From the NCBI GenBank assembly GCA_019057635.1, contig DXJL01000209.1, positions 1 through 10,496 on the forward strand: 10,496 bases of DNA, in the 5' to 3' direction. A program made the position numbers and the translations under genes. The notes below the pieces were generated by a model. That model did not search any database, had not been told where the DNA came from, and saw only the letters and a list, made by a program, of their open reading frames with translations. Of the stretch, positions 1 through 10,496 are shown one piece after another (position 1 is the first letter of the stretch; each line of letters begins with the position of its first letter). The DNA comes from Candidatus Heimdallarchaeota archaeon (GTDB lineage Archaea > Asgardarchaeota > Heimdallarchaeia > Hodarchaeales > Hodarchaeaceae).

Positions 1-237
1 ATTGAAAGAGAATTACGAATGGAAAGAATGGAACATGTAGGTACCGTTATAATCAAAGGTAATGTTCCTTGCCTTACTTGTGGCCAAGGTAGCACCTGTG
101 AAATGAGTGGAGTACCCATGATATATGGAAAGGGAACAAAAGCATCAAGTGAGCTTTGTGTAGATGTCGAAAATCAACGCAAAGTATGGTACGAGATTAC
201 TAGAATAGGTAAGCTATTAGGTGAGCGTCTTTCGTAA
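1..237 (+). CDS. 3' part of a flavodoxin-fold protein (NADPH-dependent FMN reductase / iron-sulfur flavoprotein-like), truncated by the window edge
   Basis: Frame is open from base 1 (IERELRMERMEHVG...) to TAA at 235-237. The GNVPCLTCGQGSTCEMSG segment and the final helix (VENQRKVWYEITRIGKLLG) resemble C-termini of this family as I recall them; the N-terminal FMN-binding motif is outside the window. Confidence 0.6.
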   Translation: MERELRMERMEHVGTVIIKGNVPCLTCGQGSTCEMSGVPMIYGKGTKASSELCVDVENQRKVWYEITRIGKLLGERLS

Positions 238-257
238 TTGCATTAGTTTAAGAACTT

Positions 258-473
258 TCAAATTAATTCTGAGAGAAAGCTCGAATATTCCTGCATAATG
301 GCTTTTGTTTGTTTTTTCTTGATATTAGGACTGATATGTTCAAAACCTTCAAATTCAACAAGTTTTACATTTTTTAATCGTGGGACTAGGTCTCTTGCAA
401 GTTCAATAGGGGTGACTTTATCTTCTGTGCCATTAAGTAATAATATGGGCTTATCTCCTATTGAGCTAATACA
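258..473 (-). CDS. 3' segment of the split alpha/beta hydrolase (71 codons plus stop, no start codon of its own)
   Basis: Manual translation: CISSIGDKPILLLNGTEDKVTPIELARDLVPRLKNVKLVEFEGFEHISPNIKKKQTKAIMQEYSSFLSELI*. It contains the typical P-x-L-x-x-x-G-x-x-D-x-x-x-P catalytic-acid motif and the G-x-x-H catalytic His region. Same frame as ORF 828..1526; absent from the ORF track. Confidence 0.9.
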   Translation of the reverse strand, partial: CISSIGDKPILLLNGTEDKVTPIELARDLVPRLKNVKLVEFEGFEHISPNIKKKQTKAIMQEYSSFLSELI

Positions 474-477
474 TGAT
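472..477. repeat. 6-bp direct repeat CATGAT, left copy (putative target-site duplication)
   Basis: Identical to 829-834 and lies exactly where hydrolase-like coding resumes. Confidence 0.8.
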
Positions 478-834
478 CATTTTTATCCTACAATTCCATA
501 GTTCTCATATTCGTTGACCTCTCTCTCTTAGTAACTTAAAAGGTGTCCCTCCCGTACTTCATCAAAGCCGAAGTGATGACAAAAAGATTTACTTAGCTCT
601 TAGGTCATATTCCCTTGCAACTTCGTTAGACGAGTTACCCGTGAAAGGCAAGAGAAGAATGATCCAGATTGGTCGAAAAGTATTGGTGTTTGGGGTGTTG
701 CAAGAAGATCTGATTCAAGTAATCCCAATGGAAAGCATACATACTCTTGTTGCGAACCTGCCGGACATTGGATGTGTGACTCATCCTGTCCAGAACTCTT
801 TTTCAAATAGTTGTCTAACAAATTTAGTCATGAT
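478..834 (-). mobile_element. 357-bp non-coding insertion (351 bp plus one repeat copy) interrupting the hydrolase; class unknown
   Basis: Deleting it joins ...GAT ACA TCA TG|T ATT AGC... in frame (EFDTS-CISSIGDKP). It carries in-frame stops (828-830, 600-602, 477-479), no transposase, about 40% GC by hand count versus about 33% in 301-480, and many hairpins. Confidence 0.75.
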
Positions 835-1526
835 GTATCGAATTCAATTTCTTTTTCGATATCCTGAGCATAATATCTAAAGAACAGCTCAAGTGTTCGA
901 ATTAGTGTTCCTGTAAGTAAAGGAAAAGCCCGTCTTCCTAATATCCAACTAATAATTTTTTCTTTCAGATTTAATTCCGAATAGGTCTTTTGGAATATTT
1001 TAGGAATGTATATTGTTCTTATAACCCGTTTATAATTCGTTGTATTGATTCTTTCAGATAAGGTATCATTCAATATCAGTAGGCCTTCTAGTCGCTCCGT
1101 AAAAAGATGCTGCTCCTCCTCAAGTTTCGGGCCTAGAAGATTCACTATGCCATAGCCAGCAAGACTAACTACTCTGTCGGGAAATAATCCAGTAAAAATT
1201 TGACCGACCATAGATCCTTTGCTTACGCCAAAGAGGTGGGCTCTGTCAATTTTCAAGTAATCGAGTAAACCTAGTAATTCATCTACAAGACCTTGTAGTG
1301 TAAACTGCTTATCTCTTGATGAAGATTTCCCGATTCCCTGATAATCGTAGAGAACATAGGAATACCCCTCCTCCGTTAAATTCCGAAATGCAGGTAAATA
1401 AGTCGCCATCCATTGTCGATGGTTGAATATTGAACCATTTAGAAAGACAACAGGTGGAGCACTAACATCTCGTTTCTCGTAAAGATAATCTATCTCAATG
1501 TTTTCTTTAATCTTAGCTAAAGGCAT
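828..1526 (-). CDS. Alpha/beta fold hydrolase, 5' segment (232 aa of a reconstructed 303-aa protein spanning 258..1526)
   Basis: PPVVFLNGS oxyanion strand, YDYQGIGKS motif and nucleophile elbow GVSKG (G-x-S-x-G). It lacks the catalytic Asp and His, which are in 258..473. Confidence 0.9.
   Translation of the reverse strand: MPLAKIKENIEIDYLYEKRDVSAPPVVFLNGSIFNHRQWMATYLPAFRNLTEEGYSYVLYDYQGIGKSSSRDKQFTLQGLVDELLGLLDYLKIDRAHLFGVSKGSMVGQIFTGLFPDRVVSLAGYGIVNLLGPKLEEEQHLFTERLEGLLILNDTLSERINTTNYKRVIRTIYIPKIFQKTYSELNLKEKIISWILGRRAFPLLTGTLIRTLELFFRYYAQDIEKEIEFDTS
829..834. repeat. 6-bp direct repeat CATGAT, right copy
   Basis: Identical to 472-477; overlaps the premature TGA of ORF 828..1526. Confidence 0.8.
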
Positions 1527-1541
1527 GAAATCATCTTTCCC

Positions 1542-1640
1542 TTATCTACTAAAAATGTCTAAAATGATCATAATCGACTAAAAATCAGCCTTTAAATCGA
1601 TTTGGCTAATAATCGAAATCCTGCTTTATCTACTAAAAAT
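1542..1640. repeat. 15-bp direct repeat TTATCTACTAAAAAT (1542-1556, 1626-1640) enclosing shorter CTAAAA(A)T and AATCGA units
   Basis: Read directly; lies just upstream of the hydrolase start. A central palindrome AAATCGATTT (1594-1603) sits between AGCC (1587-1590) and GGCT (1604-1607). Confidence 0.7.
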
Positions 1641-1785
1641 CTACGACCATGTATGAGAGGAAAGAGAGTAAATCCCAAAGCGTCACTTCAAAAATATGAA
1701 TTTCTGACAGGAATTGACGTTAAATCATATTGATTTGGGTTAAGCAATAAATTTATTGTAAGTTGAGTGATTTTTAATAATTTTG

Positions 1786-1809
1786 AAGGATAAAAAAAAG
1801 AGGATAAAA
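1786..1809 (-). terminator. Probable archaeal oligo-U terminator of the membrane protein gene
   Basis: T8 tract (1792-1799) within a pyrimidine-rich run on the minus strand just past the stop at 1816. Confidence 0.5.
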
Positions 1810-1815
1810 CCACGC

Positions 1816-2460
1816 TTAATACTCTGCGACTGTTGGTTCTATCTTGGTGGGAATACTAGGCGGTTGTGCTGCCCTTCTAGAGCCATAAATTAGTAAAATC
1901 CAACCAATGAAAAATAATGCTAATAATAGAATATTAATTTGTGGAATGGTCACTGTTCCTCCTATTCCCCCCATAACCTCAGCAAGAGCCTCCCAATCTT
2001 CGCTAATAATAGTTACGGTGATAATTGCCCATTCACCTACAGTACCTATCAATCCCAATATTACTCCACCTGTGTTGAGTAAAGGGTTCGGATTGTCCCC
2101 ATTCATCTTCATAAAGGCATAGAAAGCAACTGCTCCACCACCGAGAAGAGTCAGAAGCAGATATATTAGTCCCCAAAGTTGTGTTATATTCCAAAGGATT
2201 CCAGCCTGGCTACCTTCTGCCATACTATTGTAACTTACAGTAAGAGTCATTGAAAAAATAAAAACTACCGTTTCTTCTATACCATCCCACATATACTCAT
2301 TTTTTTGGGTGATAGTTGTACCTAGAGACTCTAGAGTCACTTCTTGATTATAAAAACCTCCCACTAATCCTGCGAAAGGAATAACGAGAGTTAAAACGAG
2401 AAACACAATTGCACAAATTATAGCTATGGTATGATCGTTACTTTTACTTGACATTTCCAT
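1816..2460 (-). CDS. Hypothetical integral membrane protein, about 4 transmembrane helices
   Basis: 214-aa ORF with hydrophobic stretches near aa 11-33, 88-116, 130-152 and 175-193 and a polar Pro-rich tail. Confidence 0.8.
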   Translation of the reverse strand: MEMSSKSNDHTIAIICAIVFLVLTLVIPFAGLVGGFYNQEVTLESLGTTITQKNEYMWDGIEETVVFIFSMTLTVSYNSMAEGSQAGILWNITQLWGLIYLLLTLLGGGAVAFYAFMKMNGDNPNPLLNTGGVILGLIGTVGEWAIITVTIISEDWEALAEVMGGIGGTVTIPQINILLLALFFIGWILLIYGSRRAAQPPSIPTKIEPTVAEY

Positions 2461-2789
2461 TCTTCCTATTCAAATGAAATTAAAAATTTGGGAATCATAA
2501 GTTGCGTTTTAAATATTTTGACATTGCGATGAATCTTCTTAGAAAATAAGCTAGGTCTTTCAGAAATCTCAATTCAAAAAGCGGAATCACTTCTTTGATT
2601 ACTATCTTAATCAATGAAGATTTATTAGTGAAATGTATTCTCAGGATTCCTTTTCTACATCAGGAAGAACAGCTCCAACGGTTGTTTCGAATAATTTTTC
2701 CCAATTGTTCCTGGTAGCCTATTTGAGTAAGTCTTTCAGAACGGTAGAACAAAACTAGAATGAACAAAAAATATTGGAAAGACAATATT

Positions 2790-2814
2790 GAGAAAAAAGA
2801 GAGAGTATGAGAAA
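2790..2814 (-). terminator. Probable U-rich terminator of the acl operon
   Basis: TTTCTCATACTCTCTCTTTTTTCTC on the minus strand directly after the aclA stop. Confidence 0.45.
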
Positions 2815-2816
2815 CG

Positions 2817-4649
2817 CTAATCAGCGAATAGAATCTCATCCCAAGGTTGTCGGTATAACGCTGCTCTTTGTCGTTTTTGGTCAAAAATATGACCCATCAT
2901 ACCAATAGATCGACCAAGCACAAAGAATCCATTTAACATTTCTGTTTCAACTACATCGTTCTTTTCTTCTTCAGACAAATCTAAATTTTCAAGTAAATCC
3001 ATGAAGCAAATACCAATACAACCATCGACGTTGAGGATAAGATTATTCCGTTTTGATGTAGTAATCATTTCTACTTCGAGTGCATAGTCCAAAAAAGGAT
3101 GTTTTTCGAAATTATTTAAAACGAATTCCTTTAGTAGTTTGACACGGACATCAGGGTTTTGAACAGATTTTATTCGGTGACCAATTCCAGGAATATTGAT
3201 GCCTACTACATTCTTCATATAATCTACAAATTCCTGGGGTGTCATTTTTTTATCTAGTGCTAATTTGATATATTTTGCAGCATCGGAAATGGCTCCACCA
3301 AATCGTGGACCAATTGCTAAGATTCCAGTAGCTAGCGAAGACATTAAATCTTTTCCAGCTCGGGCGGTGACTATCGCATTATGAGCCCCCGAAACAGCTG
3401 GTCCGTGGTCGGACGTGAGCTTAATGACTATCTCGATATAATCTTGGGCAAACTTTGGAAGTTCTTTTTTAAACCAGAGTAATCCAATTGTATAGCCGAT
3501 AGACTTATTCTCACTTACGACGGTATCCAATCCCACTCCTGAGAACATGGGAACATCACCCCGTTCGTCGGAAATGGTGCTGATAACAGTGGTTGGTCGT
3601 CTCACTATCCCAAGTTTAGCTGCTTGGGCATAATCCATGGGTAATTTAGGTGGTTCAAAGTCGTCCACTGGATCAATTTTTCCTTCAGCTTTAAGTTTTT
3701 CGAAGGTTGTCTTAATCTTATCGCCTAAATCATCATAAGACTCAGGAACAATGACTCCTACTTCGGCCAGTGCTTTGTTCTTAGCATGTGCAGTTTCCAT
3801 ATCACTACCCGCCATAGCACCCGCATGCCCAAATTGTAACCCTGCGGGTAGAAGTGCTGCAGCTGTACCGATGCACCACATCACTAAAGGTTTAGTAAGT
3901 CTGCCAACTTTTACTGCATTCACAATATCGATTTCTCCCGTACCACCGACTTCACCCAAACAAACCATCATCTTAATTTTAGGATTTGCTTCATAACGTA
4001 GCAGATGGTCAATTAATGATGAGCCAGCGTAACGATCGCCTCCTATAGCGATTCCCTCGAATACACCATCGGAATTCTGAGCAATCATGAAATTCATTTC
4101 ATTACTCATACCACCACTTTTAGAAACAAAACCTACACTTCCAGGTCGATAGAGCTTCGACAGTACAACATTTTCAATGGTACCAGCGGTGTTACCGATC
4201 TTGAATGCACCAGCTTGTATTCCTCCAACGGTAGCAGGGCCAATGATAACCTTTCCCTTTTCCTTTGCTAGTTTATACATCTCCCGGCTTCGTCGTTCAG
4301 GAATTCCTTCAGCAATAACAGCAATTGTATTGATTGTCTCTGCATTTAATGCTTCCATAGATGTTGGATAAGCTGACCGAAATGATGAAAAGTTGATTAA
4401 CACATCTGCATCGGGATGTTTCTTAATGGCCAAGTCTAGTTTCCTATAAATTGGAACAACAATCTCTGTTCCACCCCAAAAGACTTTATGATAACCTATA
4501 GCTCCTGCTTGACTAGGACGGATAATAGCAGCCACTGAGGGAGTCTCCCGTTTACATACAAAATCGAAGTCAAGCATCCGTTGAATTGCATTTCGTTGAA
4601 AACCATAAATAATGGCTCGTGTGTCACGATTAAATAGTTCTCTTGTCAT
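2817..4649 (-). CDS. aclA: ATP citrate lyase, large (alpha) subunit
   Basis: QRMLDFDF, IAEGIPE, IGPATVGG, VSKSGGMSNE, IGGDRY, phospho-His motif QFGHAGA, and C-terminal citryl-CoA lyase domain SDHGPAVSGAHN / GIGHRIKS / LILNVDG; 610 aa is the expected size. Confidence 0.97.
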   Translation of the reverse strand: MTRELFNRDTRAIIYGFQRNAIQRMLDFDFVCKRETPSVAAIIRPSQAGAIGYHKVFWGGTEIVVPIYRKLDLAIKKHPDADVLINFSSFRSAYPTSMEALNAETINTIAVIAEGIPERRSREMYKLAKEKGKVIIGPATVGGIQAGAFKIGNTAGTIENVVLSKLYRPGSVGFVSKSGGMSNEMNFMIAQNSDGVFEGIAIGGDRYAGSSLIDHLLRYEANPKIKMMVCLGEVGGTGEIDIVNAVKVGRLTKPLVMWCIGTAAALLPAGLQFGHAGAMAGSDMETAHAKNKALAEVGVIVPESYDDLGDKIKTTFEKLKAEGKIDPVDDFEPPKLPMDYAQAAKLGIVRRPTTVISTISDERGDVPMFSGVGLDTVVSENKSIGYTIGLLWFKKELPKFAQDYIEIVIKLTSDHGPAVSGAHNAIVTARAGKDLMSSLATGILAIGPRFGGAISDAAKYIKLALDKKMTPQEFVDYMKNVVGINIPGIGHRIKSVQNPDVRVKLLKEFVLNNFEKHPFLDYALEVEMITTSKRNNLILNVDGCIGICFMDLLENLDLSEEEKNDVVETEMLNGFFVLGRSIGMMGHIFDQKRQRAALYRQPWDEILFAD

Positions 4650-4656
4650 TTTTGTG

Positions 4657-4662
4657 CCTCCT
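4657..4662 (-). promoter_or_regulatory. Shine-Dalgarno AGGAGG for aclA
   Basis: 7 nt upstream of the ATG at 4649, abutting the aclB stop; the 13-bp gap implies an operon. Confidence 0.75.
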
Positions 4663-5946
4663 TTAGCTGTCTCCTTTAAGTGATAATGGAACGATTCGTG
4701 TCATATGAGTGTATCTATCATAAACTTCGATGGGTACTCCGATCTCTTCACCTACATCTTTCATAAGTTTAAGACCTTCCTTTTCATTGGGTCCACCTCT
4801 TCGCACATAGATCTTTACATTAGCGTTCCGTAATTTTTCAGCGGATTTTCTCAATGCCGCTACTATGCCCATAAAGGTTGCTTTGACATCGGTAAAGTTA
4901 GCAATACCTCCACCGATCAGTAAGATTTTGGGTCGTCCTTGAGGATCAGGTTTTTCCGTTAACACATCAATCAAAGTTTGTGCATAGAGTTCTGTATGTT
5001 CACGATTAGGATTCCCAGAATATTCCCCATAGTTACCTAGTTCTTTTGCAAATCCCATATCTGCAATAGTATCTGTATAGACAACAGATCCACCACCACC
5101 AGCGACCATGGTCCAGACACGTGCATCTCTATTCAGAATAGTGAATTTTAATGAGGCACCTGTCTTTTCATCCATATCTGCGATGAACCGCTCTTCTTTG
5201 GAGAGTACCTGGCCGAAAGCTCGTGGAAATTGAATCGGATTCTCTGGACTCGCCCACGTATTAATATGTTGAAAACTGGCTGTATCATCTAACTTCGCTT
5301 TTAAGTCAAGTGGAACGACAGTTCCGTCCGAGGTTACAGCAAAAGGATTGATTTCCAAAAATGCGAAATCTTGGTCAATATACACTTTTAGTAACCCTTT
5401 AACAAAAGGAACTAAAGTAGTTTTTAGATCACCCAGATCTGGTAACTTGTTAGCCAAATCAAATGAATCTACATCTGTACCTATAGGTACAGAAACATGG
5501 GTTACTTTATCCCAGTTTTCTTCGACAAAAATACCACCTTCAAAGGAAAAGTGAATAGTGTCACTATCCATATCAGAAGTAATTGAAACATAGAATTCTT
5601 TTTCATGTGGTACAAACGGTTCAACAAGGAATCGATTAAGGGTTCCCTTAATACCCCCTATTTCGACTTCTTTGTTCATTCTTTCATTAATAAATGCTTT
5701 CAATTTATCTAGATTCGCATCTAATAATAAAAGATTGGCTTTCCCTCGTTTACCGAAAAGCTGGTCAGGTTTAGCCGCTAGTTTGTCTGTATTAAGCCAA
5801 GGATTCTCAGCAACTAATTTATTCCAGTCAGTTTCGGGAGAAATTACTGCGAGTTTCCCGTGATAATTATACGCGGGAAAATACTTGGGCAGTTCCGTCA
5901 TCAGTAATTTTTTAGCAGAAAATTCATATATACTCTTTTGTGCCAT
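4663..5946 (-). CDS. aclB: ATP citrate lyase, small (beta, ATP-grasp) subunit
   Basis: KPDQLFGKRGK, VEPFVPH, LEINPF, KLDDTA, GASLKFTILN, WTMVAGGG, NYGEYSGNP, IGGGIANFTDV, VRRGGPN; adjacent to aclA. Confidence 0.97.
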   Translation of the reverse strand: MAQKSIYEFSAKKLLMTELPKYFPAYNYHGKLAVISPETDWNKLVAENPWLNTDKLAAKPDQLFGKRGKANLLLLDANLDKLKAFINERMNKEVEIGGIKGTLNRFLVEPFVPHEKEFYVSITSDMDSDTIHFSFEGGIFVEENWDKVTHVSVPIGTDVDSFDLANKLPDLGDLKTTLVPFVKGLLKVYIDQDFAFLEINPFAVTSDGTVVPLDLKAKLDDTASFQHINTWASPENPIQFPRAFGQVLSKEERFIADMDEKTGASLKFTILNRDARVWTMVAGGGGSVVYTDTIADMGFAKELGNYGEYSGNPNREHTELYAQTLIDVLTEKPDPQGRPKILLIGGGIANFTDVKATFMGIVAALRKSAEKLRNANVKIYVRRGGPNEKEGLKLMKDVGEEIGVPIEVYDRYTHMTRIVPLSLKGDS

Positions 5947-6220
5947 TTTACTTCCTCTCTAAGTTGATTAGAAAAGATACTCTTTCGTGATACGGAAAAA
6001 AAGACGAAATTAAATTCTTTTTGTGTGAAATTCTCATTTTCAAATATATATCTTAAGAGAGGTAAACGCCATACAGCAACCTAATAAAGAAATTCTTCTT
6101 CATACCTCCTCTGTTTTAGTTAAATATAGACTTGGATGAGTAGTAGAAAACTTAATAGATAATAGATGATGCATTAACCAACGTGTAACGTAAACTTTAG
6201 AGTTATTTTTGGCTGATTAC

Positions 6221-7420
6221 TCAAGGATGGTTGAACAATCCTAATTCTTCATGTTTTTGTACAATTTCTTCAATAAGGTTATCCAAAAGGGCAAAATCTT
6301 CATCACGTGGTTTTCCTTTGATGATCACAGGATTAAAGAGGTCAACTTTTAATTTAGGAATCAAATTGACGATTTGATCAACTATACTACCTTTCCAACC
6401 ATATGACCCTATCACAGTAGCAAATTTCACTTTTGGTCGAAGTAAATTAGCTAGGTAAACAGCGTAAACCACCGCTGGATGTGGACCTGTCAGGACAGTT
6501 GGTGAGCCTATAACAATCGTGGCAGTATCAACGAGACTCATTGCTAACTCTCCTATGTCAGTTGCTGTTAACATGAATGGTTTTACAGTTATTCCCCTTT
6601 TAATCAGATTTTCAGTGAGATATTTTACCATTTTTTCAGTACTGCCGTACATTGACACATAGGGAATGACCACTTCATTTTTTACTGTATCTGACACCCA
6701 CTCTTTATACGCGTTTATTATGAACTCAGGATCATTATAGATTAGACCATGACTTGTAGCTATGAGACTAATGTTTAGTTTATCAATAATTTCTAGGTGT
6801 TTTTTGATGATCTTTCTGAAAGGCATCATTATTTCAGCATAGTACCGCTTTGCAGCATTATATACATAATTATCATTAGATGAATAAATCTCACTTGAAG
6901 CAATATGATTTCCTAAAAAGTCACCAGAGAATAATATATTTTCTTCATTCAAATAAGTAAACATCGTTTCAGGCCAATGGACCCACGGAGCGGGTATAAA
7001 ATTCAGTGTTCGTCCACCTAGATCAATAGAACTCTCCTTTGTCACGATCATGAATGTCTCTGGTGCGATATGAAGTAGATTCACTAAGATCTCTTTACAT
7101 TTTTCCATGCACACAATTTTTGCGTTTGGATACAAGGCTAATACATCCTTAATAGCACCAGAATGATCAGGTTCTGCATGATTGGTAATAATATAGTCGA
7201 TTTTTTCTAGCGATAAGGATTGAAGATCGTTCAAGAATGGCTCAATCTTTCGGATATCGGATGAATCAATTAAAGCATTATGAGTAGTCCCTTTAATCAC
7301 ATAAGCATTATAACTTGTTCCATCTGGTAAAGGAATCAATTCATCAAATAAGCGTCTTTCCCAATCATTAGTGGAGATTATCCAAATTCCAGTTTTAATT
7401 TCTTTGAGCATCTTTTTCAC
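6221..7420 (-). CDS. fprA: Flavodiiron protein (FprA / A-type flavoprotein; metallo-beta-lactamase plus flavodoxin domains)
   Basis: GTSYNAY, di-iron ligands HAEPDH, HWPE, SGDFLG, SHG, and flavodoxin loop SMYGST / GSPT / GSYGW. GTG start at 7420 (ATG at 7411 is an alternative). Confidence 0.95.
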   Translation of the reverse strand: MKKMLKEIKTGIWIISTNDWERRLFDELIPLPDGTSYNAYVIKGTTHNALIDSSDIRKIEPFLNDLQSLSLEKIDYIITNHAEPDHSGAIKDVLALYPNAKIVCMEKCKEILVNLLHIAPETFMIVTKESSIDLGGRTLNFIPAPWVHWPETMFTYLNEENILFSGDFLGNHIASSEIYSSNDNYVYNAAKRYYAEIMMPFRKIIKKHLEIIDKLNISLIATSHGLIYNDPEFIINAYKEWVSDTVKNEVVIPYVSMYGSTEKMVKYLTENLIKRGITVKPFMLTATDIGELAMSLVDTATIVIGSPTVLTGPHPAVVYAVYLANLLRPKVKFATVIGSYGWKGSIVDQIVNLIPKLKVDLFNPVIIKGKPRDEDFALLDNLIEEIVQKHEELGLFNHP

Positions 7421-7949
7421 CCATTATATCTGTTAATTTTCCCGAATAAGCAATCTCTTTGGTTCTTGTTGAGTATTTCCTGTGATAAATAATTTTCTAT
7501 TATGAATATACACCCATTTTGCCATTGAATAACTTCCTTAATTCTTGAGAGCTAATCGAATGACTCCCAAATCCAAGACCGTCTCAAAGATGAATGAACA
7601 TCAGAGCCAATATTTCCAAAATATATGGAACTTTTATTAGTGAAATCGAGGTATACTCAACGATATGGATTTCTAATAAGTATAACCTATGAAAACAAGT
7701 CTTAACGAAATGAGAGAAGGTGATATTTATTGATATACAATTGAGTATATTCGTTATTAGCAGTTTATTCTTAAGAGTATATCTATTCTTTGAAGATTAA
7801 CAAATAAAATCATTCAAATCAATAAAAATATGTTTTTATTACCCCACACACACACTGGGGTCGTGAGAGGTATTTACCTTGTCGAAAATTACGATATTTA
7901 CGTGTTAATTTGGTTCTTATTTTGCTTTGTGTAATTTCGTGGAACATTG

Positions 7950-8417
7950 TTAGACTTCGGATAAAACTACACTAGTCACTGTCTTCTCAACTCCCTCAAT
8001 ATCCCGAAGTTTTTTCACAACGAAAGAATTGAGGTCATCTACATCGGCAACGGATACCTTAATGATTAAATCAGTCTCTCCTGTGACAATAGCCACTTCA
8101 TCAACTTCCGTAAGGGCATTGATTTGTCGAGCTACTCTAGGTTGACTTATTTTTTCCCCAGTTGAGGTTCGATATGAAATCGTACAAAAGATGTAAGCAG
8201 ATAATCCTTTCCCAATTAACTTTTTATTCAGCTTTACCGTATATTTCTCAATAACTCCATCAGACTCCAACTTTTTCATTCGGTTGTAAACTGTTGTTTG
8301 AGGAATATTTGTTTCTTTATAAATTTCGTTTGTATTTAACCGTGAATTCTGTGTAAGGAGTTTAAGAATTTTTTTATCTTTATCATCTAAGGTGCGAACT
8401 TGAGAAGATTCTGGCAT
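7950..8417 (-). CDS. Lrp/AsnC family transcriptional regulator
   Basis: LDDKDKKILKLL...NSR...TVYNRMKKLESDGVI helix-turn-helix and VTGETDLIIKV RAM domain. I prefer the start at 8417 (MPESS) to the track's 8441 because the extension overlaps the operator-like palindrome. Confidence 0.93.
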   Translation of the reverse strand: MPESSQVRTLDDKDKKILKLLTQNSRLNTNEIYKETNIPQTTVYNRMKKLESDGVIEKYTVKLNKKLIGKGLSAYIFCTISYRTSTGEKISQPRVARQINALTEVDEVAIVTGETDLIIKVSVADVDDLNSFVVKKLRDIEGVEKTVTSVVLSEV

Positions 8418-8511
8418 ATGGAAAAATTTTCCACTTTTCATTATAAGTTTAACTATATATGAATATTTTTTCCACTTTTTTTGCGTTAATATTATATGAA
8501 ACTAATTTTTA
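8416..8511. promoter_or_regulatory. Divergent promoter region with putative Lrp operators
   Basis: Perfect 7-1-7 palindrome TGGAAAA-A-TTTTCCA (8419-8433); degenerate copies TGAATATTTTTTCCA (8460-8474) and TGAAACTAATTTTTA (8497-8511). 8416-8438 and 8457-8479 match at 19 of 23 positions. Confidence 0.6.
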
Positions 8512-8536
8512 TGGAGAGATAGTTAATTATTTTGAT

Positions 8537-9493
8537 ATGGTGAATACAGTGACATTAAAGACAGTTCAACGTGTATCTTTACCTACATTGACTACAAGTG
8601 AAGATCTAGCAACAACTTTGAAAATTCAGACAGTAATCTTAAAGTCAATTCATGATTTTTTGTACAAAGAGGGATTAATCCAATTAATGCCAGTAATCCT
8701 CTCTCCAATTACAGATCCTTTGTCCCATCCTGTTCACAAGGCTGAGATTGACTATTTAGGACAAAAATTACAATTAATGAAAAGCATGATTCTTCATAAA
8801 CAAATTGCAATAGCAAAATTGGAAGTGAAGGGAATATATATCGTGTCTCCTAACATCAGGCTTGAGTCAGGAGAAAAGTATCTCTCCAGTGACAAGCACC
8901 TACTCGAATTTTCACAGGTAGATATCGAGCTAAGAAATGGGACCTCTGAAGAATTTATGTCCCTTTTAGAAGATCTAATTGTTTATATATTTTCGAAACT
9001 CCAAATTGACTGCAAGGAGGAATTAGCTCGTTTAGGTGTGGATTTAGGAGGCCCTTCTCCCCCATTTAAACGGTTTAGTAGCCATCAATTAAAACAACAA
9101 TTTGGAGATGATTTTGAAAAACAAATTTCCTTAATGGAGAAAGAACCATTTTGGATTACGGATTTTGAGCGAGAATTTTACGATAAAGAAGACCCCGCAA
9201 GTAAAGGCCATTATTTAAACTATGATCTGGTTTATCCTGAGGGCTTTGGTGAGGGCCTTTCAGGTGGTGAACGGGATTTCCAATATGACATTTTACTGAG
9301 AAAGCTGATGGAACGCAAACAAGATCCTAAAGACTTCACTTACTATATGGATTTGGCGAAAAGTGGGAGCTTAGTTCCAAGTGCGGGAGGAGGATTGGGA
9401 GTAGAACGTCTTGTTAGATTCATTACAAAGAAGAAAAAAATTTCAGAAATAACTCCGTTTCCGAAAATACCTAGTAAGAAAATTCTATTGTAG
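8537..9493 (+). CDS. asnA: Archaeal-type ammonia-dependent asparagine synthetase (AsnRS/AspRS catalytic-core paralogue lacking the anticodon domain)
   Basis: PVILSPITDPL, SMILHKQ, SPNIRLE, HLLEFSQVDIE, REFYD, NYDLVYPEGFGEGLSGGER, SAGGGLGVERL. Likely start is ATG 8537; the track's 8459 extension runs through promoter DNA. Confidence 0.9.
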   Translation: MVNTVTLKTVQRVSLPTLTTSEDLATTLKIQTVILKSIHDFLYKEGLIQLMPVILSPITDPLSHPVHKAEIDYLGQKLQLMKSMILHKQIAIAKLEVKGIYIVSPNIRLESGEKYLSSDKHLLEFSQVDIELRNGTSEEFMSLLEDLIVYIFSKLQIDCKEELARLGVDLGGPSPPFKRFSSHQLKQQFGDDFEKQISLMEKEPFWITDFEREFYDKEDPASKGHYLNYDLVYPEGFGEGLSGGERDFQYDILLRKLMERKQDPKDFTYYMDLAKSGSLVPSAGGGLGVERLVRFITKKKKISEITPFPKIPSKKILL

Positions 9494-9495
9494 CA

Positions 9496-9519
9496 TTTAC
9501 TTGTTTTTCCTTTCTTTCT
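9496..9519 (+). terminator. Probable U-rich terminator
   Basis: TTTACTTGTTTTTCCTTTCTTTCT directly after TAG 9491-9493. Confidence 0.45.
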
Positions 9520-9541
9520 AGTAGAAATAAACTATAGGTAA

Positions 9542-9712
9542 GATTATCCTATCTACAGAGTAATGGGAATTGGATTGAAACGAATGACAGGTGTTGGTAA
9601 TGGTGACCAAATTTGTGATTTTAGGTTTAAGAAATCATATAACACTTCTTATGGCTGGCCCCCAGAGGAATTACCTGAATTAAAGCTTGAGGATGAAAAT
9701 TTAAGAGTGTAA
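9542..9712 (+). pseudogene. C-terminal relic of an L-2-amino-thiazoline-4-carboxylic acid (ATC) hydrolase family gene
   Basis: Manual translation DYPIYRVMGIGLKRMTGVGNGDQICDFRFKKSYNTSYGWPPEELPELKLEDENLRV* fits the family pattern D-[FY]...G-x-x-L-x-R...G-x-x-x-C-D-F-R-F as I recall it. An in-frame TAA (9539-9541) precedes it and there is no room for the N-terminus. Confidence 0.65.
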
Positions 9713-10200
9713 GCGACTATTTCAGTAGGAATTAACCAAAGTTTTTACTTATCATAGCAGCTGACTCATCAGCGTTATAACATTCATTAGGTAAAGATTT
9801 TCCCTTTTTTTTCTATTCCGTAGATAATATAAGGCTGAGATACATATGAGTTCTACAAAGCAACATGATTTTTTTTTTAAAACCCCTTGTCGAGGATGAG
9901 TTTGATTATTTCTCTCTTTCGAGTAATAATATTTATTCCTTCTAGAGCAGATTCTTGATATTCACACCTGAAAAAAGAAAAGTAAGATAGCAAACTCCTT
10001 CTGGGTCGATGAAGTCATAGACTCTTTAAAGCTTCGATACAAGTAAACAGAATAAGCTCCTTAACATTACGAATTTAACAAGGAAATTTGTTATTTATCT
10101 GTTAAAAACAGTTTTCCAACCTTTAAAAACCTATTTTGGGATTGATATTCTCAGGAAAAGAAATTTGAATATTAAATAATAGATAATGGGGTTAATTAAT

Positions 10201-10496
10201 ATGATCACAAAAACAAAAATCATCTGTACCATTGGACCAGCCTCTGAAGATCCAGATGTCTTTAAGAAGTTAATTGAGGAAGGAATGAATGTATGTCGCC
10301 TTAATTTCAGCCATGGTACTTATTCAGATCATAAAACTCGATTTGAGCTTATTAAAGAGAATAACGACGATCTAGCAGTCTTGATTGATTTATGTGGTCC
10401 GAAAATTCGAACTGGAGAAATAATGGAAGGAACCGTGATTGCGACAGATCAGGAATTTAGAATCACAGCAGATATGGATCTAGAAGGAAATTCTGA
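10201..10496 (+). CDS. pyk: Pyruvate kinase, 5' part (runs off the window)
   Basis: Manual translation MITKTKIICTIGPASEDPDVFKKLIEEGMNVCRLNFSHGTYSDHKTRF...AVLIDLCGPKIRTG; TKIICTIGPAS, RLNFSHG and D-x-x-GPKIRTG are diagnostic. An in-frame alternative ATG lies at 10186. Confidence 0.96.
   Translation, partial: MITKTKIICTIGPASEDPDVFKKLIEEGMNVCRLNFSHGTYSDHKTRFELIKENNDDLAVLIDLCGPKIRTGEIMEGTVIATDQEFRITADMDLEGNS

Follow-up and report, generated by a model that had tools for sequence, protein, structure and literature searches.

A probable TnpB-derived miniature element interrupts an alpha/beta-hydrolase gene in a Heimdall archaeon

Introduction

When a gene lies in two pieces that share one reading frame, is it broken, or is the sequence between the pieces removed before the protein is made? 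The question is raised by an alpha/beta-hydrolase gene interrupted by 357 bp in a 10,496-nucleotide stretch of DNA from Candidatus Heimdallarchaeota archaeon (GenBank assembly GCA_019057635.1, contig DXJL01000209.1, positions 1–10,496 of the forward strand), hereafter the window. A preliminary description of the locus had left the choice between a recent insertion of an unclassified non-autonomous element and an intervening sequence removed at the DNA, RNA, or translation level. We consider it very likely that window positions 474–830 are a knock-out insertion of a miniature inverted-repeat transposable element (MITE) derived from an insertion sequence (IS) that encodes the RNA-guided nuclease TnpB; this judgement does not extend to the choice of transposase, which is weighed separately below.

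The hydrolase gene and its interruption

Translation revealed a single minus-strand frame across window positions 240–1526, in which a 232-aa N-terminal part and a C-terminal part are separated by the 357-bp gap. The N-terminal 232 codons (831–1526, minus strand) contain the G-x-S-x-G nucleophile region (GVSKG), as placed by the orthologue alignment and by PF00561 (E 5.9e-10, profile positions 1–102 of 245). They run into a TGA stop (828–830, minus strand) supplied by the right terminus of the insert (minus strand, ..AGTCA), and this truncation precedes the catalytic Asp and His. The C-terminal 71 codons and their stop (258–473, minus strand; PF08386, E 4.6e-6) have no start codon of their own and contain the predicted Asp (NGTED) and His (GFEH): positions 261–473 read CISSIGDKPILLLNGTED..GFEH.., the stop lies at 258–260, and the segment matches profile positions 198–240 of 245 of PF00561 (Abhydrolase_1). 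Neither half has an internal stop or frameshift, while the 357 bp between them hold 5 in-frame stops (TGA 828–830, TAA 600–602, TAA 528–530, TAA 483–485, and TGA 477–479). The alpha/beta-hydrolase fold is assigned from the Pfam matches in both halves and the contiguous orthologues; no NCBIfam equivalog model matched the hydrolase at its cut-off.

The hexamer CATGAT occurs at 472–477 and at 829–834, flanking the gap, and deletion of the 357 bp yields a 303-aa frame that matches unbroken orthologues. When the N-terminal piece was searched against 41 related genomes, 11 close orthologues of 295–309 aa came up, all with unbroken frames. The nearest of them (genome G010; 303 aa, 77% identity) aligns without a gap over the junction, where it reads YAS|CINS and the window reads DTS|CISS. 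The one-frame split with a startless segment holding Asp and His, the paired hexamers, and the restored 303-aa protein of the preliminary description were thus all borne out.

Copies and ends of the insert

The preliminary description had also proposed that further copies of the insert be sought, and they are numerous. A DNA search of the window's own genome (G000; 3.19 Mb, 214 contigs, 91.6% complete) with the insert gave 45 matches, 11 of which span query positions 1–357 at 76–100% identity, and a profile built from these matches gave 51 matches in G000, 18 of them full-length. The 18 copies represent 17 distinct loci because two of them have identical flanks. These two (C182:43-400 and C133:39-395) lie at contig ends at the same MITE locus and differ slightly in element sequence; they are probably one locus assembled twice, or two strains. 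The MITE was seen in 7 of 21 same-genus genomes and in none of the 19 genomes searched outside the genus. Copies are abundant in G000, G002, and G020, all of which are incomplete metagenome-assembled genomes (MAGs; 84–93%); G002 is ~94–96% identical to G000 in flanking DNA, and G002 and G020 together contribute 20 further full copies.

Every copy starts with TGATCA(T/A)(T/A)TTTGTCNGACAA and ends with TTGTCTGACAAATTTAGTCA (..TAGTCA). With at most 1 mismatch allowed, the end motif occurs 66 times in G000, 69 times in G002, and 27 times in G020, whereas the reversed control gave no match in 22 genomes. The two ends form 20-bp imperfect terminal inverted repeats (TIRs), which agree at 15 of 20 positions in the family consensus and at 12 of 20 in the window copy; this copy is decayed, and the earlier statement that there is no clean terminal inverted repeat does not hold for the family. 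The insert is short, non-coding, and multi-copy, and it has terminal inverted repeats and a short target duplication, as is generic for MITEs.

Copies with the same ends, the long TnpB elements, and empty sites (both described below) together delimit the MITE in the window to positions 474–830 (plus strand), with the element proper at 475–829 and AT flanks at 473–474 and 830–831. Its sense strand, defined by tnpB, is the plus strand of the window, so that the MITE is antisense to the hydrolase. The following parts were recognised, all on the plus strand: (i) the left TIR TGATCATTTTTATCCTACAA (474–493), whose family consensus TGATCATTTTTGTCCGACAA includes the palindrome TTGTCNGACAA, here with two substitutions in the palindrome; (ii) a TATA-like box CTTAAAAGG in the left end (535–543), which is conserved in the MITEs, corresponds to TTATAAGAG upstream of tnpB in the long elements, and is a putative promoter; (iii) the most conserved core of the MITE, CCCTTGYAACTNCGTTAGACGAGTTACCCGTSAAAGG (612–648; columns 147–193 of the MITE alignment A2), a perfect 9-bp hairpin within a covarying outer stem, which matches a 37-nt internal tnpB segment encoding ..LVTTSDGLLVKG..; (iv) the right end (716–830), common to the tnpB 3′ end of the long elements, structured and ωRNA-like, with two covarying hairpins; and (v) the right TIR TTGTCTAACAAATTTAGTCA (811–830; consensus TTGTCTGACAAATTTAGTCA), within which the tnpB stop codon of the long elements falls. 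Columns 105–114 of alignment A2 (window ~576–585) read GAGGTGATGA and are nearly invariant, though no open reading frame (ORF) follows in the MITEs; this motif looks like a Shine-Dalgarno-like sequence with the tnpB ATG, and an upstream C-rich run (CCTCCC) could pair with it. In the window copy no open stretch exceeds 104 codons, and the one of that length is a remnant of the tnpB 3′ end.

Two smaller forms with the same ends were observed. In 29-bp solo elements, the left and right repeats overlap on the palindrome TTGTCNGACAA (9 nt + 11 nt + 9 nt); they occur in G000 (C84:3073-3101, C104:23052-23080, and C152:1635-1663), in G002 (C8:64501-64529, C35:1464-1492, and C50:11149-11177), and at metagenome loci (L189:1116-1144, L191:401-429, and L193:125-153). 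The best preserved of them (C84, C104, L189, and L191, not C152 or L193) are bordered on both sides, read outward, by ..CA or ..TA. These solo elements are either minimal mobile units or products of deletion between both palindromes. The other form is a 142-bp mini-derivative (L175:146-287; G002 C57:96045-96186) with CA/TG flanks, composed of ~95 nt of the left end, the terminal hairpin, and the right repeat.

The parent elements encode TnpB

Matches to the last 70–115 bp of the insert led to six complete long elements of 1332–1420 bp, each with the MITE's ends and one ORF. This ORF is TnpB, with matches to PF07282 (E 1.2e-23, 83.5 bits), PF01385 (E 7.8e-18, 65.3 bits), and the NCBIfam model NF040570 (guided_TnpB; 223.5 bits against a cut-off of 100), and four copies have tnpB open frames of 422–431 aa. 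MITE positions 243–357 align to the last 115 bp of the long elements, which are the tnpB 3′ end, and the window plus strand therefore shows ..LPDIGCVTHPVQNSF.. MITE positions 139–175 match the 37-nt internal tnpB segment, whose counterpart in the long elements sits ~540 nt upstream of the right-end region, and the left ~120 bp of the MITE are the equivalent of the promoter-like left end of these elements. To judge from these alignments, the 357-bp element is a non-autonomous internal-deletion derivative of a 1.33–1.42-kb TnpB-only IS. Of the earlier wording, "non-autonomous" stands, the insert being a multi-copy MITE, and "unclassified" gives way to an origin from this IS.

Among the longer elements with the MITE's ends, only TnpB is encoded, and no transposase with these ends was found. 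Close TnpB relatives (69–95% identity) that have the same ends are confined, among named genomes, to MAGs of Heimdallarchaeota and Hodarchaeota.

Structure of the right end

TnpB elements are known to encode an ωRNA at their right end (the accessible parts of PMC8612924 and PMC10055086). An alignment was built from 57 distinct right ends of MITEs and long elements, taking the last 125 nt of each. The predicted partners pair in 94.4% of cases, compared with 24–53% when partners are slid by 1–3 columns, and two-sided changes fill 113 cells versus 35.6 ± 4.8 in shuffles (0 of 500 reach 113), a count that is inflated by the kinship of the copies. Two hairpins account for the covariation, the terminal one and a variable one within the tnpB coding end. 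In the full-length MITE alignment (33 sequences), the two inverted repeats pair, and the central domain (612–648) is nearly invariant; its outer stem changes from UUG/CAA to UCG/CGA in a divergent subfamily. The structured right end of the MITE matches what would be expected of an ωRNA, and we refer to it as ωRNA-like.

Target site and empty sites

The flanks of 37 full copies from the three copy-rich genomes are strongly constrained: position −2 is C in 32 copies and T in 5, −1 is A in 35 and C in 2, +1 is T in 36 and G in 1, and +2 is G in 36 and A in 1. T is absent from position −3 (A 15, C 14, G 8), although the mirror position +3 is mostly A, so that the target preference is not perfectly palindromic.

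Empty sites show which of these bases belong to the target. At the window locus, metagenome contigs from two runs, X1 and X2, pass from position 471 to 829, skip 357 bp, and leave 6 bases ambiguous. A long element on contig C69 of G000 is missing from G002, where the site reads ttcTATGttt, and the base after AT on one side thus belongs to the flank. Conversely, four G002 MITEs (L130, L134, L136, and L139) are missing from G000, where the sites are CATG, CATG, CATG, and TATG, respectively; the L139 case assigns the base before AT on the other side to the flank. Taken together, C69 and L139 narrow the duplicated bases, which flank the element on each side and stand singly in an empty site, to AT within YATR, an arrangement found at six empty sites. 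A fifth, more diverged G002 MITE place is also unoccupied in G000, with poor alignment at the junction, and a MITE on C82 is occupied in G000 and G002 alike. The repeated CATGAT in the window is explained accordingly: the insertion duplicates only the central AT, and the remainder is target preference (CATG) and chance.

One G002 MITE (L140) is the only full copy with the right flank TA; its flanks are 1207 bp apart in G000 (C83:20433-21641), with something else between them.

Status of the insertion and fate of the gene

Is the insertion real? It could be an assembly artefact, in which a repeat was misplaced into an intact gene: the element breaks the assembly elsewhere, with many of its ends at contig ends, and X1 holds an empty-site contig. 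The contigs of X1, the best-matching metagenome run and possibly the source sample, were made by another assembler, yet they bridge both occupied junctions (410–519 with 0 differences, and 800–1799 with 4 differences). In addition, the window copy has a sequence of its own, with no other copy above 91% identity to it. An artefact is, on this evidence, hardly credible.

Is the insertion fixed? Because metagenome contigs carry the occupied junctions as well as an allele exactly lacking the 357 bp, the insertion looks polymorphic in the population, although contigs give no allele frequencies. There is no doubt that a 96.5%-identical relative carries the empty allele, as represented by an X2 contig of 708 nt with 25 differences. 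Sequencing runs containing the stretch come from marine-sediment and cold-seep metagenomes, and no RNA run is listed among them; places in X2–X4 that contigs leave uncovered are given no weight. Presence and absence of copies differ between ~94–96%-identical genomes and within one sediment population, and we therefore regard the family as currently mobile.

Could the hydrolase still be made from the occupied allele? In favour of a functional intervening sequence (a group I or II or bulge-helix-bulge intron, an intein, or a translational bypass) are the length of the insert, a multiple of three, and the halves in one frame without stop or frameshift, and the inverted repeats could pair in RNA. 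However, the insert combines two TGA with three TAA in frame, and with two kinds of stop neither a single codon reassignment nor an intein reading is possible. Rfam gave no match at E ≤ 1 in window positions 1–2000 on both strands, the junction (sequence read by eye) lies in a helix without 3-nt bulges, the structured tnpB-sense strand is antisense to the hydrolase, and the other full copies, at 351–363 bp, are mostly not multiples of three. The copies also avoid genes: the window copy, with 237 and 71 codons on either side, is the one clear mid-gene case among the 17 distinct G000 loci, whereas 83% of 2000 random positions fall in open frames of at least 150 aa. This rarity argues that insertions in genes are harmful rather than spliced out. 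Removal at the RNA or translation level, which had been kept open in the preliminary description, is highly improbable.

The MITE insertion is instead predicted to inactivate the hydrolase, whose product is cut at residue 232, ahead of the predicted catalytic Asp and His. Only a change in the DNA could restore the gene: either the element excises precisely or the locus recombines with an empty allele. At columns invariant in the other 11 sequences, the window hydrolase has 3 private replacements (P70S, A81V, and L216F), compared with 0–1 in the five closest orthologues; under a looser column criterion, the numbers are 7 and 0–2. This small excess fits relaxed constraint or early decay, and it bears on a further reading, namely that the interruption is old and tolerated, with the 232-aa product or both pieces functional, and the gene split rather than knocked out. 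In favour of such a split gene, neither half has acquired a stop or frameshift despite the divergence of the MITE copy, the greatest in its subfamily; against it, the C-terminal piece has no start codon, the N-terminal piece lacks Asp and His, the empty allele still circulates, and the replacements at conserved columns exceed those of the orthologues. We judge a functional split gene to be very unlikely.

Search for the enzyme that moves the family

No copy of the MITE/TnpB family has a serine transposase inside it. The resolvase/serine model PF00239, searched in G000 and 22 genus genomes, identified two IS607-type elements in G000 (on C54 and C56), in which a serine TnpA lies directly upstream of TnpB; in G002, it found a classical resolvase/invertase with no family ends nearby, and in G020 it had no resolvase match. 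The IS607-type element on C54 (~5747–7665; L043:239-2157) is 1919 bp long and encodes a 195-aa serine TnpA and a 407-aa TnpB, and tnpB-only relatives of it occur in G002, G020, G018, and G010. The Y1 transposase model PF01797 matched in 2 of 22 genomes of the genus (G018 and G013).

When the 2484 open frames of at least 150 aa in G000 were clustered against one another, no transposase emerged in multiple copies; the families with several members were TnpB (8 members), a Ras-like GTPase (6), and a second TnpB (4). The GTPase family comprises C20:19723-20937 and five paralogues of ~400 aa with a C-terminal Ras/Roc small-GTPase domain (PF00071, E 3.3e-36); such families are typical of Asgard archaea. 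In G000 and G002, the intervals separating unpaired or distant ends contained only host genes. The exact left-end pattern occurs at 5 loci in Joint Genome Institute (JGI) metagenome contigs, three of which are 29-bp fused ends and none of which has a transposase. End-motif scans of viral contigs gave 0 and 1 match and no larger element; the lone match, which lies among other ORFs with no second end motif and no MITE-profile match, was rejected as chance.

The ORFs upstream of 69 TnpB-relative loci, compared by BLAST with the two local serine transposases only, gave one match, at L057. This locus is the closest TnpB relative with a transposase neighbour (35% identity), and it lies beside a serine recombinase. 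Two distant TnpB relatives (L095 and L101, 27–28% identity) have adjacent ORFs that appear Y1-like by eye.

These last two loci bear on whether the family is an ordinary IS200/IS605 element, whose 357-bp copy would be a palindrome-associated transposable element (PATE) moved by a Y1 TnpA as single-stranded DNA and inserted 3′ of CATG without duplication. TnpB is the hallmark accessory gene of IS200/IS605, the right end of the MITE has a subterminal hairpin with compensatory changes ~10–18 nt from the terminus, and PATEs that encode ωRNAs are described in the accessible part of PMC10055086. On the other side, (i) PF01797 has no match in G000, G002, or G020, which are incomplete MAGs; (ii) the ends are inverted repeats, and the covarying hairpin is at the right end only; (iii) the right flank is constrained like the left in a symmetric Y-A|T-R, with T at +1 and G at +2 each in 36 of 37 copies; and (iv) the C69 empty site contradicts a CATG that lies wholly in the left flank. 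We consider this assignment decidedly unlikely. With its TIRs and AT core, the family fits none of IS200/IS605, IS607, and IS630 on all tested features.

Discussion

The evidence converges on a MITE that inserted at CATG within a 303-codon alpha/beta-hydrolase gene of an Asgard archaeon of the Heimdall/Hod lineage. From its parent, the MITE retains the ~20-bp repeats, the left end with its promoter-like sequence, 37 nt from within tnpB, and the structured right end of 115 nt. In the mechanism that we propose, it would move as double-stranded DNA by means of a transposase acting in trans, encoded elsewhere or not assembled, which would recognise the inverted repeats and exchange or stagger strands at the central AT. 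The MITE may be transcribed from a left-end promoter of its own into an ωRNA-like RNA that draws its guide from the right flank, and TnpB from the long copies could cut the empty allele and so favour retention of the MITE.

Several observations weigh against this account. The cognate transposase was not found in the data: besides the missing Y1 match, the IS630-type DDE model (PF13358, DDE_3) has no match in G000, G002, or G020, and Cas1 (PF01867) has none in G000. The resident IS607-type elements on C54 and C56 have ends unrelated to those of the MITE family, and the C54 element, the one of the two delimited by its absence from the orthologous G002 site, has TATCAC, not CATG, at both junctions and once in the empty site. 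Among the empty sites, that of a G000 MITE on C31 reads cttcTTAtttt in G002, one base off the expected CA+TA, which we take, without proof, as a substitution between the genomes. The empty-site joint in X1 is carried by one contig (depth 5.4) with a shorter side of 33 nt and a minimum likeness of 88%. Finally, none of the 9 copies in its subfamily departs further from the consensus than the window copy, which differs at 29 positions. Of these differences, 20 are private, and three alter the terminal palindromes TTGTCNGACAA, which elsewhere are conserved. Such divergence, in a gene otherwise intact, sits uneasily with a very recent insertion; the word "recent" in the preliminary description therefore agrees with the polymorphism in the metagenomes and disagrees with the divergence of the copy. 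The window copy may no longer be mobilisable, in which case the knock-out would be permanent unless the empty allele were regained by recombination.

As to the enzyme, an exchange over a 2-bp core resembling that of serine recombinases is our tentative preference, and DDE cut-and-paste transposition with a 2-bp duplication is a possibility that we hold with somewhat more reserve. Another or a new enzyme is doubtful, and Y1 peel-and-paste is unlikely. A wider proposal would be that this is an undescribed IS family of Heimdall/Hod Asgard archaea, targeting AT in YATR and mobile now, with either a new kind of transposase or a role of TnpB (RNase-H/RuvC fold) in transposition, and with MITEs that serve as promoter-bearing guide-RNA genes programmed by their right flank. 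Taken whole, we regard this proposal as rather unlikely; if it were true, stand-alone guide-RNA genes would include the 142-bp and 29-bp forms of the MITE.

Gene-splitting MITE insertions are commonplace, and the split gene itself is of little import, being a transposon copy that knocks out a gene in part of a population. The value lies in the family, which provides delimited TnpB elements with ends, target, empty sites, and more than 50 covarying right ends in the archaeal lineage closest to eukaryotes. Its natural minimal derivatives (357, 142, and 29 bp) delimit what the transposase needs. The family is raw material for the question of how TnpB/ωRNA systems pair with differing transposition chemistries, and it opens no long-standing question.

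Other features of the window

Elsewhere in the window, positions 2817–5946 encode a two-subunit ATP-citrate lyase, with a 427-aa citrate-binding/ATP-grasp subunit and a 610-aa CoA-ligase/citrate-synthase subunit. Its neighbours are a flavodiiron-type protein, an Lrp/AsnC regulator, a class II aminoacyl-tRNA-synthetase-like gene of the AsnA type, and the start of a pyruvate kinase. A tRNA scan of the window found none.

Comparison with known systems

In the accessible parts of the literature on TnpB and Asgard transposons, TnpB MITEs and IS1341, and Asgard mobile elements, the family is not described; Additional Files 10 and 11 of PMC10691335 may list it. The part of PMC13343696 available to us reports IS200/IS605 elements as widespread in Asgard genomes, with no occurrence of "TnpB" and one of "MITE".

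The closest parallel in content is provided by PATEs, which, in the parts of PMC3119063 (Haloquadratum) and PMC10055086 (Geobacillus) consulted, are minimal non-autonomous derivatives of IS200/IS605 (TnpB) elements: they lack coding sequence, are reduced to the fused ends, and often retain an ωRNA, the guide-RNA region. Like them, the MITE is a non-coding deletion derivative of a TnpB IS that retains the right-end RNA region and depends on proteins in trans. Unlike PATEs, which by definition have neither TIRs nor target duplications, the MITE family has 20-bp TIRs and is bordered by AT at each end, and the search for a Y1 transposase came up empty in the three copy-rich genomes.

According to the sections of PMC6188088 and bioRxiv 10.1101/2023.11.20.567912 that we consulted, exchange takes place in IS607 elements at an identical core of 2 bp, in most cases GG; the donor joints are precise, and TIRs are absent. 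The MITE family likewise has the same dinucleotide at both junctions and once in the empty site, and TnpB as cargo, and its relative at L057 adjoins a serine recombinase. It is distinguished from IS607 by its TIRs, by an AT rather than a GG core, by the lack of an internal serine transposase, and by ends unrelated to those of the resident IS607-type elements.

IS630/Tc1-mariner elements duplicate TA, whereas the MITE family duplicates AT in YATR, and no DDE_3 match was found in the three copy-rich genomes. In other respects the family resembles TnpB carriers of the DDE (IS630) type. The part of PMC10691335 consulted states that TnpBs in DDE transposons are bounded by inverted terminal repeats and that solo TnpBs can share ends with transposase-bearing copies; both systems have inverted repeats around TnpB, a tnpB 3′ end near the transposon end, and solo copies that are presumably mobilised in trans.

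With IStrons, in which a group I intron is joined to an IS605/IS607 TnpB element, as presented in the accessible part of bioRxiv 10.1101/2023.11.20.567912, the window insertion shares the placement of a TnpB-family element in a coding gene and scarless removal that is possible in principle. It differs from them in giving no group I intron signal, in lying antisense to the gene, and in belonging to a family whose copies avoid genes. Against these known systems, what differs here is the architecture of the parent element (TnpB only, 20-bp TIRs, and duplication of AT in YATR) and the host lineage.

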